Below are positions 654-17,592 of a stretch of 64,000 nucleotides of DNA, in pieces. The stretch lies in contig CAYOLY010000002.1 of assembly GCA_964404945.1 (NCBI GenBank), forward strand, positions 602 to 64,601. Reading direction: 5' to 3'. Under the pieces are notes generated by a model. That model was not told the origin of the DNA. It ran no database searches and was given only the letters and a program-made list of their open reading frames with translations. The stretch's first letter is position 1; each line of letters opens with the position of its first letter. Origin of the DNA: an uncultured Candidatus Saccharibacteria bacterium (GTDB taxonomy: Bacteria > Patescibacteriota > Saccharimonadia > Saccharimonadales > Saccharimonadaceae). Both the position numbers and the translations under genes were made by a program.

Positions 654-1400
654 ATGAAGCCAAGCAAGCGGAAGATTAGCCGATATCGAGGACGACGCAT
701 AGGGGTCGTGGCTGCAGTAGTCGCGGCTTTGATTGGTATAGTTGTTGCGAATCCGAACAGCTATGAGCCGATTGTAGAGCCAGCGGAGGCGGTTAGCAGT
801 AACGATGTTATCGAAAAATCTGAAGGGCAACTATTAGCAACGGAAATTTTGGAAAAGCTAGAGATCAAGGGGCGTGCGCCAAAGACCGGGTATAGCCGTG
901 AGGAGTTTTATAAGACTTGGCCAAAAGTGGATGGCTGTAGTTTGCGTCAGCGAATTATTAAGCGCGAGTTGGGCGATACGGCGAAGTTGGATGCGGATCA
1001 GTGCACGGTGCTATCAGGTGAGTTTGTGGAACCATATACGGGGCAGCATCTGATTTTTTACGAAAAGTCGGATTTTGCGACGGGTATTCAGATTGATCAC
1101 GTCGTGGCGTTGTCGGATGCTTGGCAAAAGGGAGCGCAGTATAAAACGGCCGAGGAACGCTATGCTTTGGCGACCGACCCTTTGAACCTGCTAGCAGTAG
1201 ATTCTAGCGCTAATCAGCAGAAGTCGGATGGTGATGCGGCAACTTGGCTACCGAAAAATAAAGCATTTCGGTGTCAGTACGTGGCGCGGCAGGTTTCGGT
1301 GAAATATAAATATGGTCTTTGGGTGACGCAGGCAGAACATGATGCGATCGCGAAGGTGTTGGAGGCGTGTCCAAATGAGTTGGCGGTTGGGGTGGAATAA
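654..1400 (+). CDS. Membrane-anchored/secreted HNH-type nuclease family protein (DUF1524-like)
   Basis: N-terminal hydrophobic segment; IQIDHVVALSDAW, NLLAVDSSANQQKSDGD, WLP...CQYVARQ; GAGGAG SD. Confidence 0.75.
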   Translation: MKPSKRKISRYRGRRIGVVAAVVAALIGIVVANPNSYEPIVEPAEAVSSNDVIEKSEGQLLATEILEKLEIKGRAPKTGYSREEFYKTWPKVDGCSLRQRIIKRELGDTAKLDADQCTVLSGEFVEPYTGQHLIFYEKSDFATGIQIDHVVALSDAWQKGAQYKTAEERYALATDPLNLLAVDSSANQQKSDGDAATWLPKNKAFRCQYVARQVSVKYKYGLWVTQAEHDAIAKVLEACPNELAVGVE

Positions 1401-1592
1401 GGAAAATATAAAACATCCTTAGATCGGTTAACTCTAGACTTTCTTCAACCGAGGGTGGCGCTCTCCTCGTAGACTCGCTTACGCTCTCTAAATCGAAAAG
1501 CTTCCAGCCTCAGAAGTCAAGCTTCACGATTTCTAGCTAGCCTAAGTCCTTATTACTCCTCTCCAAGTTAGTTTTATTTATCTTTTCCTTAT
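1397..1592. repeat. MITE-like structured repeat, copy 1 (196 bp)
   Basis: Terminal IR ATAAGGAAAA/TTTTCCTTAT; core 1466-1558 is 92/93 identical to 10433-10525. Confidence 0.8.
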
Positions 1593-1594
1593 CT

Positions 1595-1809
1595 TTCATC
1601 CTCTCATTGATTACTCATATGGCTAGACAACGGAGGGGGAAACCCCAGAAACGTCCCTGCCCGTTTTCTACTGCATACATAATACCGTCAGTCTCAGCAA
1701 TACTAACAGCGTTATAAATATCAGCCGAAGCTGTTATACTCCACCAACCAGTTCCGCTATTATAACGTGACAAGCCCTCCGTAATTGAGACATACCCGCT
1801 GCGGACGAA
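1595..1809 (-). other. Orphan variable C-terminal cassette A (FISUMP/CLec-like tip)
   Basis: Frame 1809-1615 reads FVRSGYVSITEGLSRYNSGTGWWSITASADIYNAVSIAETDGIMYAVENGQGRFWGFPLRCLAI*; both anchors present; upstream in-frame TAA at 1849-1851, no start. Confidence 0.85.
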
Positions 1810-1823
1810 GAAAAGGCTAGTGT

Positions 1824-8778: not shown

Positions 8779-10020
8779 TTAGGGCTTGTTAATCTGGGTG
8801 TCGTTGCCGTCAGACAGGGCGTCAGCGAGCTCCTGCAGAGCTTCCATGATGCCGGGGTTACAGTCGGCGGCGTCCAGATCTTCGCGGGTCATGATCTGGC
8901 TCAGCATCACGCTCAGATGATTGCAAACACGGACATTGACCAGGATGTGCTGGAAGAAATCCTTCTGCTTCCAGGTCGGCATGTTCTTGTAGTAGGCCTC
9001 GATCTGCCAGGGATGCTCCTTGTTATCGGCGTTGTAGATTGCACCGGGAAGCGGGCAGCCGTTGAGGTTTTGATAGCCAGCAATGTCATCAACGGTGACA
9101 AGCTCCGTCAGCTTTTTGCTGTCACTGGTGCGGCAGGCCCGGATCAGCTCGGCCCAGGTACGGATCTCGCAGGGGCGAAAGTGTAGCAAATCCAGGTGCT
9201 TTGCCCGGGTAGCCAACCACTGCAGCTGAGCGATCAGCAGGTGCCCAGCAGACTTGATGTAGCCCTGCTTGACTTGACTGTCGATCATGGGGACGATTTT
9301 GGCAGGTGAGGCAGCTTCGCGTAGCTCGTCAAAAGTGCTGATGATTACATTCCGATAGTCATAGAGCCGGCCGACAGTATCGGTCTCGGCGTCATAGTGG
9401 ATTTCCGTCAGGTAACGGTTATTAATCTCGGGATCGTTAATCAAAATGCTTTGACGAATCAGCTCCTCCATGATGTAGCGATCGGAGCTGCTGATGCGGT
9501 AGGACGGCTTGCCGTTCAAACTGAGGTTGAAATAGCGGCAGTAGTCGTATTCCCACCGTTTCGACTCATCCAAGGCCAGATACTCGGAGCGGGTGATTTC
9601 CTGCTCGGTATGGAGGTGTCTGATCTTGCGATCGGGCCAGCCGTCGTGGGTCTTGCCGGGCAGAGGACGGAACATTTTGTCTTCCAAGGGATCGCCGTTT
9701 TCGTCGATAGCCTGCCCCAGCATATTGATTTTGGGGAGGTCGAAGATAAAGGCCAGGAAGCTCATCTTGTCCACGTCGTAGAGCTTCAGCATCTGCTGGG
9801 CGTCCTTGCGCCGGCGTGTCCGCTGCTGCTCATCGCTCTGAACCAGGAGCGCGATGATGTGCTGCTGGTTGCTGGTAGAAAGGATGTTGGGGTACTCGCT
9901 GGCCGGAGCCAGCTGCAGGGCAGTTATCATCGACCGGGCGCCCTCGAAAAAGGCGCGGGCCTCGCTGGACTTGGGGTTCTGCAGGTAGTAGCTGAGGTTG
10001 GTACGGATGTTGGTTCCCAT
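8779..10020 (-). CDS. Hypothetical protein (413 aa), GC-rich, foreign-looking
   Basis: Long ORF; AAAGGTGG SD before ATG 10020; spot check 9781-9840 gives 40/60 G+C. No motif recognised. Confidence 0.75.
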   Translation of the reverse strand: MGTNIRTNLSYYLQNPKSSEARAFFEGARSMITALQLAPASEYPNILSTSNQQHIIALLVQSDEQQRTRRRKDAQQMLKLYDVDKMSFLAFIFDLPKINMLGQAIDENGDPLEDKMFRPLPGKTHDGWPDRKIRHLHTEQEITRSEYLALDESKRWEYDYCRYFNLSLNGKPSYRISSSDRYIMEELIRQSILINDPEINNRYLTEIHYDAETDTVGRLYDYRNVIISTFDELREAASPAKIVPMIDSQVKQGYIKSAGHLLIAQLQWLATRAKHLDLLHFRPCEIRTWAELIRACRTSDSKKLTELVTVDDIAGYQNLNGCPLPGAIYNADNKEHPWQIEAYYKNMPTWKQKDFFQHILVNVRVCNHLSVMLSQIMTREDLDAADCNPGIMEALQELADALSDGNDTQINKP

Positions 10021-10310
10021 AGGAATCCACCTTTCTGCGCTGTTCGCGCTCAAAAATATTACGCAACAGAGTTATTGCGCAGACCGGCCATTTTGGAGTG
10101 TGCCCTCTTTTGGCTAGTGGATTTCAAAATAAACGATCTGCACAATAATCTATTGTGAATATTGAATGCGAGATAAATCTATTAGCTGTAAAAGAACGTT
10201 AATGGTGCATACGGGGTATGACCATTAAAGTGTTTGGAGTACTAACGTAAGGCAGTACTCCTTTTCTAGGGACTAGAAAAACAAAATTGCTATTTTAGGC
10301 CCATATCTCC

Positions 10311-10339
10311 ATTGTAGCACAGACTGGCTATTTTGTCAA
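10311..10339 (-). promoter_or_regulatory. Sigma70-type promoter
   Basis: TTGACA-17 bp-TACAAT with TGTG extension, facing the 8779-10020 gene. Confidence 0.75.
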
Positions 10340-10356
10340 TAGTTAAATCATAAGAA

Positions 10357-10557
10357 ATAAGGAAAAATAGTATATCTACTCAAAACCAGTAATAAGGACT
10401 TAGGCTAGCTCTCAATCGAAGGTGGAACTTTTCTCGTAGACTCGCTTACGCTCCCTAAATCGAAAAGCTTCCAGCCTCAGAAGTCAAGCTTCACGATTTC
10501 TAGCTAGCCTAAGTCCTTATTACTCTTCTCAAGCTAGCTTTATTATATTTTCCTTAT
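10357..10557. repeat. MITE-like structured repeat, copy 2 (201 bp)
   Basis: Same ATAAGGAAAA/TTTTCCTTAT ends; internal perfect 23-bp IR (10388-10410 / 10502-10524); core shared with copy 1. Confidence 0.8.
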
Positions 10558-10640
10558 CCCTTTGCTGGTTGTAGGCGTAAGTTTGCTAGCAATATATGCT
10601 TTGCAAAGTTCTAGCATATTGTTCGCCAAACTCCCTATCC

Positions 10641-10863
10641 CTTCATCCTCCCTATGATTACTCTATATGGCTAGACAACGGAGAGAGAAGCCCCAACCAC
10701 GGTTAGCAAAAGAAACGGAATTACCATAATCGACTGTCATACCGTTGCTTCTTAAGGTGAAGGAATTTGCACTATTAATTGCGCTACTAGACCAATAATG
10801 CAAATTCGTACTAGCCTGTTCTACAATGTAGTTATGCCTATTCCCCCTCCCGCTGCGGACGAA
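10641..10863 (-). other. Orphan variable C-terminal cassette C
   Basis: Frame 10863-10663 reads FVRSGRGNRHNYIVEQASTNLHYWSSSAINSANSFTLRSNGMTVDYGNSVSFANRGWGFSLRCLAI*; preceded by SPLF, then in-frame TAA at 10879-10881. Confidence 0.85.
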
Positions 10864-10886
10864 GAAAAGGGGGCTTGCTTAATCCT

Positions 10887-16104: not shown

Positions 16105-16124
16105 AAAATATGCCTCCAAACGCC

Positions 16125-16235
16125 AACTACTCTTACGACTTTTCTCGAGGCGCGTCGCCACATCCCGCCGTTGCGGGTGTGGCGCGCTACTCCTCGTCGT
16201 AACTCCGGATCCTCGAGAAAAGTATAAGAGTAGTT
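16125..16235. repeat. 111-bp nested palindromic REP/MITE-like element
   Basis: AACTACTCTTA/TAAGAGTAGTT outer IR, CTTTCTCGAGG/CCTCGAGAAAAG middle IR, CGCCACATCCCGC/GCGGGTGTGGCG inner stem. Confidence 0.65.
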
Positions 16236-17592
16236 ACCGTTCATTGACATACTCTATCAAGGTGGTTCTTAAGTCTCTGACTGGGATGACGAAGCTGTCG
16301 TGGACGGTGGCGGGGGCGATAGCGTGTGAAAAGCCGAGTTTCTTCGCTTCGGAAATGCGTTGATCGGGGCGGAAAGCGGAGCGAATTTCACCACCAAGCC
16401 CGACTTCGCCAAACACCACGAAATCTTCGGCCAGCTTACGTCCAGCTACAGCCGAAGCGATCGCAAGACAGATTGCGAGATCCGCCGCCGAATCCTGCAC
16501 CCGGAGACCCCCAACGACATTAATGAAGACGTCTTTATCACTAAGCTTGAGCTTCGTGCGGCGCTCGACCACGGCAATCAGTAAATTTAGCCGGTTAATA
16601 TCAAAACCAGAGCTAGTACGCTTTGGATAGCCAAAGTTAGTCGGAGTAACGAGCGCCTGAATTTCAACTAAGATCGGGCGGGTGCCTTCAAGGGTGGCCA
16701 GAATAATTGAGCCGTCGGTATTTTGACGTTCGGCGAGCAAGGCAGCGGAGGGGTTTTCGACTTCGGCGAGGCCCTGCTGGTTCATTTCGAAAATCGCAGC
16801 CTCGGTCGTGGAGCCAAAACGATTTTTAACGGCGCGAACGATCTTAAACCCACCGTAGCGGTCACCTTCAAATTGCAAGACGACGTCGACCAAGTGTTCA
16901 AGAACTTTCGGGCCGGCTAAAGTTCCCTCTTTCGTAACATGCCCCACGATGATTACGGCGGTGCCGGAAAGTTTGGCGGCGCGGATGATAATGTTGCCAC
17001 AGTTTGTGACCTGAGAAATCCCACCAGGGGCGGAAGCGATCTCGGCTAGGGTTAAAGTCTGAATTGAGTCAACAATCACGACGTCAAATTCGCCGCCTTC
17101 GATGGTTTTAGCAACGTCGTTGGCACTGGTTGAACTAGCGAATTTGAGATTGGGCGATTCAGCACCGAGGCGGATGGCCCGAAGTTTAACTTGCCCGGCT
17201 GACTCTTCGCCTGAAACATAGAGCACCGGACGTTCTTTAGCCAGCTCAGCGCAAATTTGCATAAGTAAAGTGGATTTGCCAATGCCAGGCTGGCCGGCGA
17301 GCAATGAAACTGACCCCTGCAAGATTCCTCCGCCCAGTACAGCATCGAGGTCTTTAAAACCCGTATGCAAACGCTCGCGGTCGTCTGAGGCCTCGAGATC
17401 ATTAATCGAGACGTATTCCAAGGTTTTTCCGGAGGTTTGGGCTCGACCGACGGCGGATTTTTCGTCACGCGAGTTATCGTCGAATTGCTGGATAAGCGAA
17501 CTCCAGGCGCCGCATTTTGTACAGCGACCAGTCCAGTTTTTATAAATCGCGCCACATTGCTGGCAAGTAAATTGGACATGAGATTTGGCCAT
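16234..17592 (-). CDS. radA: DNA repair protein RadA/Sms
   Basis: C4 zinc finger CQQC..CTKC, Walker A GQPGIGKST, KNRFG, Lon-like C-terminus. Confidence 0.95.
   Translation of the reverse strand: MAKSHVQFTCQQCGAIYKNWTGRCTKCGAWSSLIQQFDDNSRDEKSAVGRAQTSGKTLEYVSINDLEASDDRERLHTGFKDLDAVLGGGILQGSVSLLAGQPGIGKSTLLMQICAELAKERPVLYVSGEESAGQVKLRAIRLGAESPNLKFASSTSANDVAKTIEGGEFDVVIVDSIQTLTLAEIASAPGGISQVTNCGNIIIRAAKLSGTAVIIVGHVTKEGTLAGPKVLEHLVDVVLQFEGDRYGGFKIVRAVKNRFGSTTEAAIFEMNQQGLAEVENPSAALLAERQNTDGSIILATLEGTRPILVEIQALVTPTNFGYPKRTSSGFDINRLNLLIAVVERRTKLKLSDKDVFINVVGGLRVQDSAADLAICLAIASAVAGRKLAEDFVVFGEVGLGGEIRSAFRPDQRISEAKKLGFSHAIAPATVHDSFVIPVRDLRTTLIEYVNER

Follow-up and report, generated by a model that had tools for sequence, protein, structure and literature searches.

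What are the two units of about 200 bp that each stand at the 3' end of a silent cassette in the stretch of DNA analysed here (the window; 64,000 nucleotides from an uncultured Candidatus Saccharibacteria bacterium), and what ties them to that position? A first reading, made from the letters and their open reading frames (the sequence-only reading), had offered two answers: a MITE of IS630/Tc1-mariner descent that co-inserts at the same hot spots, or a functional 3' RNA module of the cassette system comparable to the structured spacer of a DGR. We address the question with the genome to which the window belongs (G000; 0.97 Mb, 35 contigs, 97% complete) and with related genomes, and the answer starts from the following features of the window.

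1397..1592, minus strand: element copy 1, family 1, a recombinant of arm types
1430..1545, minus strand: three-way-junction core of copy 1 (model R1, 105.3 bits, E 7.6e-29)
1593..1810, minus strand: silent cassette A (VRSGY...GFPLRCLAI*), whose conserved 3' tail directly joins copy 1
10311..10339, minus strand: promoter beyond the far end of copy 2, strong and sigma-70-type (TTGACA, 17 nt, TACAAT, with TG before)
10357..10557, minus strand: element copy 2, family 1, subfamily a, an intact long hairpin with ends ATAAGGAAAA / TTTTCCTTAT
10397..10512, minus strand: three-way-junction core of copy 2 (model R1, 127 bits, E 2.9e-35), with every model pair formed
10558..10640, minus strand: 'Y module', a repeated spacer of about 83 nt from cassette tail to element
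10641..10864, minus strand: silent cassette C, its tail followed by the Y module and then copy 2
16123..16237, minus strand: family 2 copy with no cassette alongside, and an RBS and ATG just downstream

The two units of about 200 bp are copies of a small hairpin-forming repeat family. What the sequence-only reading had said of their layout was accurate: both copies carry ATAAGGAAAA at one end (1397-1406 and 10357-10366) and TTTTCCTTAT at the other (1583-1592 and 10548-10557), and the 93-bp core that they share (1466-1558 and 10433-10525) differs at one variable position, such a match being expected 0 times on the basis of 100 shuffles. The perfect 23-bp inverted repeat ascribed to copy 2 is indeed present, as a perfect 23-nt run inside a 31-nt inverted repeat (90%), and both copies lie in the same orientation 3' of minus-strand cassettes (3' signatures at 1622-1635 for A and 10670-10683 for C), with copy 1 abutting A and copy 2 standing 83 nt from C. 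The Y module that fills this distance is found at about half of the element-bearing cassettes and precedes either element family. The terminal inverted repeats measure 16 nt in copy 1 (94%) and 15 nt in copy 2 (87%), and a further locus of the genome (C8:35993-36167) matches copy 2 at 100% identity over 175 nt. When folded against shuffled sequences, copy 2 has a minimum free energy of -82.1 kcal/mol (z = -8.6 sense and -9.7 antisense) and copy 1 one of -58.6 kcal/mol (z = -3.1, a weak excess).

The cassettes are start-less half-domains, not genes. G000 holds about 140 such units, bounded by TCGTCCGCAGCGG and CTCCGTTGTCTAGCC and spread over about 90 loci, with the open frame VRSG...LRCLAI(E)* retained in 136 of 138 cassettes. 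A single unit continues upstream into a long gene encoding a 720-aa secreted protein (the expression locus, C19:6029-8191), and the tip of this protein recurs nearly unchanged among the silent copies. To judge from these frames and repeats, the arrangement looks like cassette-based surface variation, in which the cassettes would be silent spare lectin tips of a variable surface protein. Some 30 of the roughly 140 cassettes bear an element (family 1 or family 2); none is present at the expression locus, where an ordinary terminator hairpin is found. We found no paper in the literature on cassettes or palindromic repeats in Saccharibacteria.

Counting the element genome-wide, as the sequence-only reading had proposed, reveals many copies with a strong tie to cassette tails. 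A covariance model of the core has 23 matches in G000, and BLASTN together with nhmmer recovers about a dozen full copies and many fragments; 21 units are bounded by ATAAGGAAAA/TTTTCCTTAT ends, with lengths of 177-279 bp. Seventeen of the 23 cores follow a cassette tail on their own strand at a distance of 260 nt or less, and no core does so in the opposite orientation (2000 permutations: mean 0.42, maximum 4), so that the random scatter relative to cassettes that would have spoken against a link is not what the genome displays. Three more copies are probably cassette-linked too: one at a contig end beside a Y module, one 550 nt off behind a repeated module and one preceded by a tail-like stretch. 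The distance from tail to element varies from 27 to 148 nt, and the bases ahead of the element often read RAA|ATAAGG. The same arrangement is found in relatives (17 of 21 matches in G112, 5 of 7 in G117 and 4 of 8 in G131), and in G131 it is present even though both the cassette anchor and the outer sequence of the element have diverged.

Beyond its own genome, the family was found only within the genus. Of 150 genomes searched within the genus, 16 others contain matches to the covariance model, the highest counts being 21 in G112, 10 in G117 and 9 in G131, and 300 genomes sampled from the rest of the order (217 genera) yielded no model match. The covariance model alone reached these other species, as BLASTN of copy 2 against 60 relatives returned nothing beyond its own genome. 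Apart from four weak hits, the genomes with model matches have at least 29 cassette HMM matches, a co-occurrence that does not amount to an independent count because the cassette-rich species may represent one clade; eight genomes with at least 50 cassette matches are absent from the set with model matches. The relatives are metagenome assemblies of uncultured Candidatus Saccharibacteria, one of them from a mouse-gut catalogue. The element family is thus far known from one genus of mouse-gut Saccharibacteria, in a subset of its species.

A full copy is a near-perfect hairpin of about 90 bp (about 180-210 nt in all) with a three-way junction as its tip. Its ends are A-rich and U-rich (AAUAAGGAAAAG...CUUUUCCUUAUU), and it has a long outer stem, an internal loop rich in purines and the conserved branched tip. 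The tip is built from a 5-bp inner stem, a 4-bp hairpin (loop C..GA) and a long hairpin from which an invariant C bulges. Across subfamilies, the arms and the far part of the tip vary and the design stays constant: the inner stem reads AAUCG/CGAUU or AACC/GGUU, with the bases UG next to it, the 4-bp hairpin reads GAAG/CUUC, GGCG/CGCC or GCGA/UCGC, and the long hairpin opens with GGG-C-UGR (C being the invariant bulge) and closes with YCA-CCC. Copies with matching arms reach minimum free energies of -76 to -106 kcal/mol. The core of copy 1 retains the inner stem (P1), the small hairpin (P2) and the long hairpin with the bulged C (P3), with several pairs broken (that is, six non-standard pairs in the model alignment, in the inner P1 stem and P3). 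Classical MITEs conserve their ends while the interior drifts; the element shows the reverse pattern, with the internal core conserved and the ends less so, and both the non-cassette copies and the G131 copies that were read lack the ATAAGGAAAA ends.

This fold is maintained by compensatory changes both within the genome and in other species, which is the outcome of the covariation analysis that had been suggested for it. In a hand-checked alignment of 14 copies from G000, from which the covariance model was made, 96.6% of cells are paired and 8 of 17 pairs have changed on both sides, compared with 29-50% of cells when the partners are slid by 1-3 columns. For copies from relatives, the corresponding figures of 98.3% of cells and 15 of 17 pairs with two-sided changes are flattered by an alignment fitted to the model, a bias from which the own-genome alignment is free. 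The core hairpin AAATCGAAAAGCTT..AAGCTTCACGATTT noted in the sequence-only reading is a possible pairing, in this subfamily only, and it is not the retained fold: other subfamilies and species pair AAAUCG with CGAUU on the far side of the core, and GAAG/CUUC forms a separate small hairpin in the pairing kept across subfamilies and species. The compensatory changes show a core constrained for its predicted shape, beyond the need of a purely passive repeat, and the conservation of a covarying three-way junction suggests that something recognises the shape of the element.

Which strand would fold is a separate matter. All 19 copies fold better in the cassette-sense direction (a total of -1647 kcal/mol versus -1472 kcal/mol), and we rejected this as strand evidence given that shuffles show an equal gap (averages of -48 kcal/mol sense and -36 kcal/mol antisense), so that the advantage of the sense strand stems from base composition. 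G-U pairs are too few in number to indicate the folding strand. In Rfam, the window has no match at gathering scores; permissive searches gave copy 1 only chance-level matches and gave eight other copies, from both families, none at E <= 1.

Some copies are found away from cassettes. One copy in G000 lies in frame within the linker of obg, a 482-aa frame passing through the element, and has a diverged counterpart at the same place in G112 and G117; the obg of G036 has a short linker and no element. In relatives, copies in sense orientation interrupt tatD and an mnmA-like gene. Two copies of G000 (C10:10198-10301 and C28:992-1096) face empty orthologous sites in G112, and these two filled/empty junctions were compared between species, not strains: at C10, about 11 bases have been replaced, with no clean duplication, and the C28 insert begins after TAATC microhomology, with about 16 nt that resemble the end of a cassette tail; neither junction shows a TA duplication. 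The element is mobile, or at least repeatedly gained and lost, and the comparison of orthologous sites shows that, by genomic criteria, it is dispensable at any single locus. Three other candidates were set aside: C7 versus C17 as a within-genome filled/empty pair (homology stops before the Y module, after which the sequences differ), the G112 orthologue of the copy-2 locus as a simple presence/absence case (one cassette and an extra gene are found there) and core-less end pairs as the basic MITE (one 70-bp unit only, in G112, which is probably a deletion product).

An enzyme that might mobilise such a repeat was sought in six element-bearing genomes (G000, G112, G117, G131, G013 and G034). 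In these assemblies, which are 85-97% complete, DDE_3 (IS630), Y1_Tnp (IS200/RAYT) and DEDD_Tnp_IS110 were not found, and the same searches match in control genomes. The IS630 transposase anticipated by the sequence-only reading is thus absent from the search results, and G000 has no repeat longer than 600 bp and hence no repeated insertion sequence of that length. Reverse transcriptase (RVT_1) was found in neither G000 nor G117, which removes the ground for the comparison with a DGR spacer; four relatives do have one, near cassette-like sequences in G013 and G131, and the contig with the reverse-transcriptase gene of G112 has no match to the element model. The search for sbcD in the six genomes was also negative. 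We therefore rejected an SbcCD cut at the palindrome centre as a trigger of one-sided conversion; the absence of sbcD may instead explain the tolerance of such long palindromes.

A second, unrelated core occupies the same position. Family 2 (about 29 copies) has UACG-type loops on covarying stems; 13 copies lie behind same-strand cassettes and 0 in the opposite orientation, and a further six to seven are embedded, in the sense direction, in long reading frames. Its cassette-adjacent copies have the ends ATAAGGAAAAG...CTTTTCCTTAT, the same as family 1. On the far side of the element, 11 of 19 cassette-linked units have, within about 50 nt of the far end, a co-oriented promoter or extended -10 box, and four of them read CCTTAT|TTATGCTATAAT. 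The promoter beyond copy 2 (TTGACA-17-TACAAT, 10339-10311) faces the gene at 8779-10053, and the same promoter block follows several other copies; part of this block is a separate repeat that is also present without the element.

How the element came to share the orientation of the cassettes is suggested by copies that combine two sequence types. Copy 1 is a chimera, with an arm of type A in its cassette-side half and a far arm of type B, a mismatch owing to which its long outer stem cannot close. In G112, the orthologous copy (L110) is intact and of type B, and the two copies regain homology only in their far arms. The gene, far arm and flank of this locus agree between the two genomes, and the sequence of G000 diverges, as type A, from mid-core onward, over the near arm, the tail and the two cassettes. 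A second chimera with the same polarity is found at C19:610. As copy 1 is sense to cassette A and antisense to both flanking genes, its orientation tracks the cassette and not the neighbourhood. Elsewhere, C12 and C3 have cassette and element in common (91%, 423 bp), one orthologous site has a family 2 core in G000 and a family 1 core in G112 between shared ends and flanks, and at another G112 retains the ends with about 50 nt between them. Since synteny between G000 and G112 extends to about 35 archive loci, the dispersal of the archive is old, and the differences seen today arise from replacement in place.

On balance, we consider it probable that the element is a non-autonomous structured palindromic repeat, similar in kind to Rickettsia palindromic elements or Correia elements, that is carried in the flank of the cassettes. 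The MITE reading stands in so far as the element is small, palindromic, multi-copy, without a gene of its own, present or absent at orthologous sites and in frame in housekeeping genes; its link to IS630/Tc1-mariner is not supported, given the lack of DDE_3 in six genomes, of a demonstrable TA duplication and of insertion in both orientations. A classical MITE of that descent (that is, one moved in trans by a transposase, with TA duplication and a target preference in or near the cassette tail) would account for 16-nt terminal inverted repeats that start and finish in TA, for about 21 units with ATAAGGAAAA and TTTTCCTTAT ends, for presence and absence between species and for the frequent RAA|ATAAGG, but we regard it as improbable. 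The terminal TA is itself part of the inverted repeat, and at the clean empty site bases have been replaced and no TA is duplicated; DDE_3 was not found in six genomes, and G000 has no long repeat; tail distances range over 27 to 148 nt, and the ends are absent from the non-cassette copies and from the G131 copies that were read. Moreover, all 17 of 17 cassette-adjacent family 1 cores, like the 13 cassette-adjacent copies of family 2, point one way, which argues against a transposon known by its inverted-repeat ends, as this should insert either way. The promoters beyond the far ends raise the idea of a domesticated insulator, in which the hairpin would stop transcription or be cut by RNase III, and the far end and flank would supply or protect the next promoter. 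With co-oriented promoters or extended -10 boxes at 11 of 19 cassette-linked units, and with the precedent of Correia elements, which bring promoters, lie shortly before genes and undergo RNase III cleavage (PMC10969869), this idea has some appeal; we nonetheless think it has little chance of being right, as copy 1 points towards a gene's stop codon and not towards a promoter, intragenic copies cannot terminate and the promoter block is a repeat also found without the element. The insulator reading is further weakened, and identity as an intrinsic terminator was rejected, by a terminator scan that is empty at both copy 1 and copy 2 and by the pairing of the U-rich end with its A-rich counterpart in the stem.

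Several observations sit uneasily with a repeat that is merely carried along. A core that covaries across species and keeps invariant unpaired bases exceeds the needs of a selfish inverted repeat, two unrelated cores share one position and one orientation behind cassettes, which may point to selection for some property at that site, and the association with cassettes persists in G131 despite diverged anchors and element ends. Taken together, the constraint on shape, the placement of family 2 and the link in G131 keep alive a dedicated role in cassette exchange, in which a structured RNA or a folded single-stranded DNA at the cassette 3' end would promote or direct copying (for example, by marking donors, by pausing replication or as a structured handle for a recombinase or nuclease). 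In favour of this role are the sense-only orientation and tight spacing behind tails in four species, the confinement of confident matches to species with large libraries, the strong covariation with invariant unpaired bases, the UACG-type loops on covarying stems of family 2 and the termination of replaced segments within the core. We still judge it to be rather unlikely, as an element is carried by only some 30 of the 140 or so cassettes and is absent from the expression locus, copies lie within obg, tatD and other genes, the pairing of copy 1 is broken, sites in G112 are empty or hold a different family, and eight genomes with at least 50 cassette matches have no model match. In its boldest form, to which we give a similarly low credence, the element would be the 3' handle of the archive, a branched hairpin (of RNA or folded DNA) that lets cassettes copy between loci and that scattered them originally; if so, the variation of these tiny symbionts would depend on a domesticated mobile repeat and not on anchor homology alone. 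A site akin to integron attC, at which the folded strand at the cassette 3' end is the substrate of a tyrosine recombinase, would be in line with the position of the element 3' of a cassette, with its imperfectly palindromic form, its conserved ends around a variable middle and its branched tip, and with the dispersal of the cassettes over about 90 loci. We consider this the most far-fetched of the readings, and extremely unlikely: by reading, the ends ATAAGG.../...CCTTAT do not fit RYYYAAC/GTTRRRY, most cassettes have no element and are start-less half-domains, some copies are intragenic and about 35 archive loci are syntenic between species.

If, as we favour, the element is a palindromic repeat carried in the cassette flank, it may have entered the 3' flank of a cassette early, after which tail, optional Y module and element would have travelled as one block through the homologous recombination that shuffles the archive. 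Such block travel would explain the fixed orientation and the co-location without insertion specific to cassettes, an argument from block inheritance that rests on three loci. The core, being conserved between loci, could provide an extra patch of 3' homology in which conversion tracts can end, and copy 1 would then be the product of a tract that ended in the element. Any effect on the host may be incidental, the element placing a long hairpin where a cassette block without a promoter gives way to the promoter of the next gene; if transcribed, it may be processed or act as a barrier.

Small palindromic repeats that lack a transposase are known in other reduced genomes. The family described here combines a covarying three-way junction, an orientation-fixed and near-exclusive link to donor cassettes and recombinants with breakpoints inside the element. 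A mechanistic link would reveal how a genome of 1 Mb can assemble and keep a scattered archive of some 140 cassettes. If the element is hitch-hiking, it would offer a clear case of a selfish repeat that spreads via the recombination system of its host, and such repeats would be useful markers of conversion tracts in metagenomes.

Among known systems, the DGR spacer RNA resembles the element in being a structured non-coding segment 3' of a repeat that codes for a variable lectin-fold tip. It differs in that G000 and G117 have no reverse transcriptase, no template repeat and RT gene lie adjacent, the element exists in dozens of copies, and the cassettes vary throughout and not at adenines alone. 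REP/BIME sequences are likewise many-copy palindromes outside genes, found at transcription-unit 3' ends and recognised by their structure; the element here, however, is much longer, branched and also intragenic, and Y1/RAYT is absent from the six genomes. In Neisseria, the host of Correia elements, silent-cassette variation also operates, and the Sma/Cla repeat is a conserved non-coding block 3' of pilE and the pilS copies that provides downstream homology for gene conversion. The likeness to the element is that of a non-coding block just 3' of cassettes; the expression locus of Neisseria carries Sma/Cla, which is not a mobile palindrome, whereas the element is absent from the expression locus of G000 and also occurs inside unrelated genes.

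The closest parallels are with two groups of small palindromic repeats. Correia elements (CREE/NEMIS) are 100-200 bp inverted repeats with TA ends that typically lie just upstream of genes, carry outward promoters and, as RNA hairpins, are cleaved by RNase III; no transposase is known for them (PMC10969869). The element shares with them the size of the inverted repeat, ends that begin with TA, the lack of a transposase in our searches and a host with silent cassettes, but the junctions compared show no TA duplication, its orientation is fixed by the cassette and its interior, rather than its ends, is conserved across species. Rickettsia palindromic elements, of about 100-200 bp, form several families, occur in frame in housekeeping genes as well as in intergenic regions and have no known transposase (PMC10969869). 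The element is like them in behaviour: it is palindromic, forms families, inserts in frame, has yielded no transposase and resides in the reduced genome of a host-dependent bacterium. It departs from them in that its copies lie mostly at the 3' tail of cassettes, in one orientation, and in that the part it conserves is a covarying three-way junction.

Alongside the family 1 element, a structured palindromic repeat, the genome carries a second palindromic family with an unlike core (family 2) and several further repeated modules, located as follows (G000, this genome; G112 and G117, relatives of the same genus; C, contig).

Window 16123-16237, minus strand: copy of the family 2 structured palindromic repeat.
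Window 10558-10640, minus strand: Y module, a repeat of ~83 nt between cassette tail and element.
Window 10290-10345, minus strand: repeated promoter block.
G000 C7:24125-24560, C17:23165-23600 and C16:16907-17290: ~430-bp repeated module immediately 3' of some cassette tails.
G000 C6:30594-32042, G112 C6:11379-11888 and G117 C2:34254-34763: obg with a palindromic element in the linker.

Family 2 occupies ~29 sites across the genome, and its core (...GGAUCCGGAG-UUACGA-CGAGG...CCCGUAACGACGGG...) has UACG-type loops and covarying stems; 13 copies lie 3' of cassettes (that is, silent lectin-tip units of the surface-protein gene), all in sense orientation, and 6-7 lie, also in sense, within long reading frames. 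At one pair of orthologous sites (G000 C10:13440-13640 with G112 C16:10015-10120), identical end sequences enclose family 2 in one species and family 1 in the other. At another pair (G000 C8:3387-3572 with G112 C11:6913-6982), a full element in one species corresponds to just ~50 nt of filler in the other.

The Y module (GGCGAACAATATGCTAGAAC...TTGCTAGCAAAC) precedes family 1 or family 2 in about half of the element-bearing cassettes and is present in G112 too. The promoter block (TTCTTATGAYTW..CTATTGACAAAAT..TGTGCTACAATGG) lies ahead of unrelated genes, just past the far ends of several of the elements, with further sites on C9 and C14 of G000 and at G112/G117 loci L104, L108, L111, L113, L125 and L126. 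The ~430-bp module has a promoter of its own (TGCTATATAAT) and also contains a 36-codon open frame (MVKTLLCKLLKILIDRLGSQQSKNDVTVISIKIDFK). The expressed gene occurs a second time in G000, truncated to its final ~160 codons, at the start of contig C12 (positions 1-450); this copy has the same tip as the expression locus (C19:5972-6420) and is 99.3% identical to it.

Elements also meet coding sequence directly. The TAA stop of gene 654-1400 (window 1398-1400) falls within the terminal ATAAGG of family 1 copy 1, and the G112 orthologue has an identical type of ending; judged by eye, the C-terminal sequence of the product looks like an HNH/DUF1524-type nuclease. In the Obg proteins of the three genomes listed above, the linker that joins the GTPase domain to the C-terminal domain includes a translated element copy; across the genus the linker varies in length, with total protein lengths of 433 to 515 aa.

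No sbcD homologue was found in G000, G112, G117, G131, G013 or G036, all from this genus, by a search that gave a match in 13 of 14 control genomes, an absence that fits with ~200-bp near-perfect palindromes being tolerated. A reverse transcriptase was likewise not found in G000 or G117; in G013 (C9:49761-50120) and G131 (C4:17412-18008), such genes lie ~0.5-2 kb from cassette-like lectin-tip sequences, and in some species the same lectin-tip fold may be subject to retroelement diversification.
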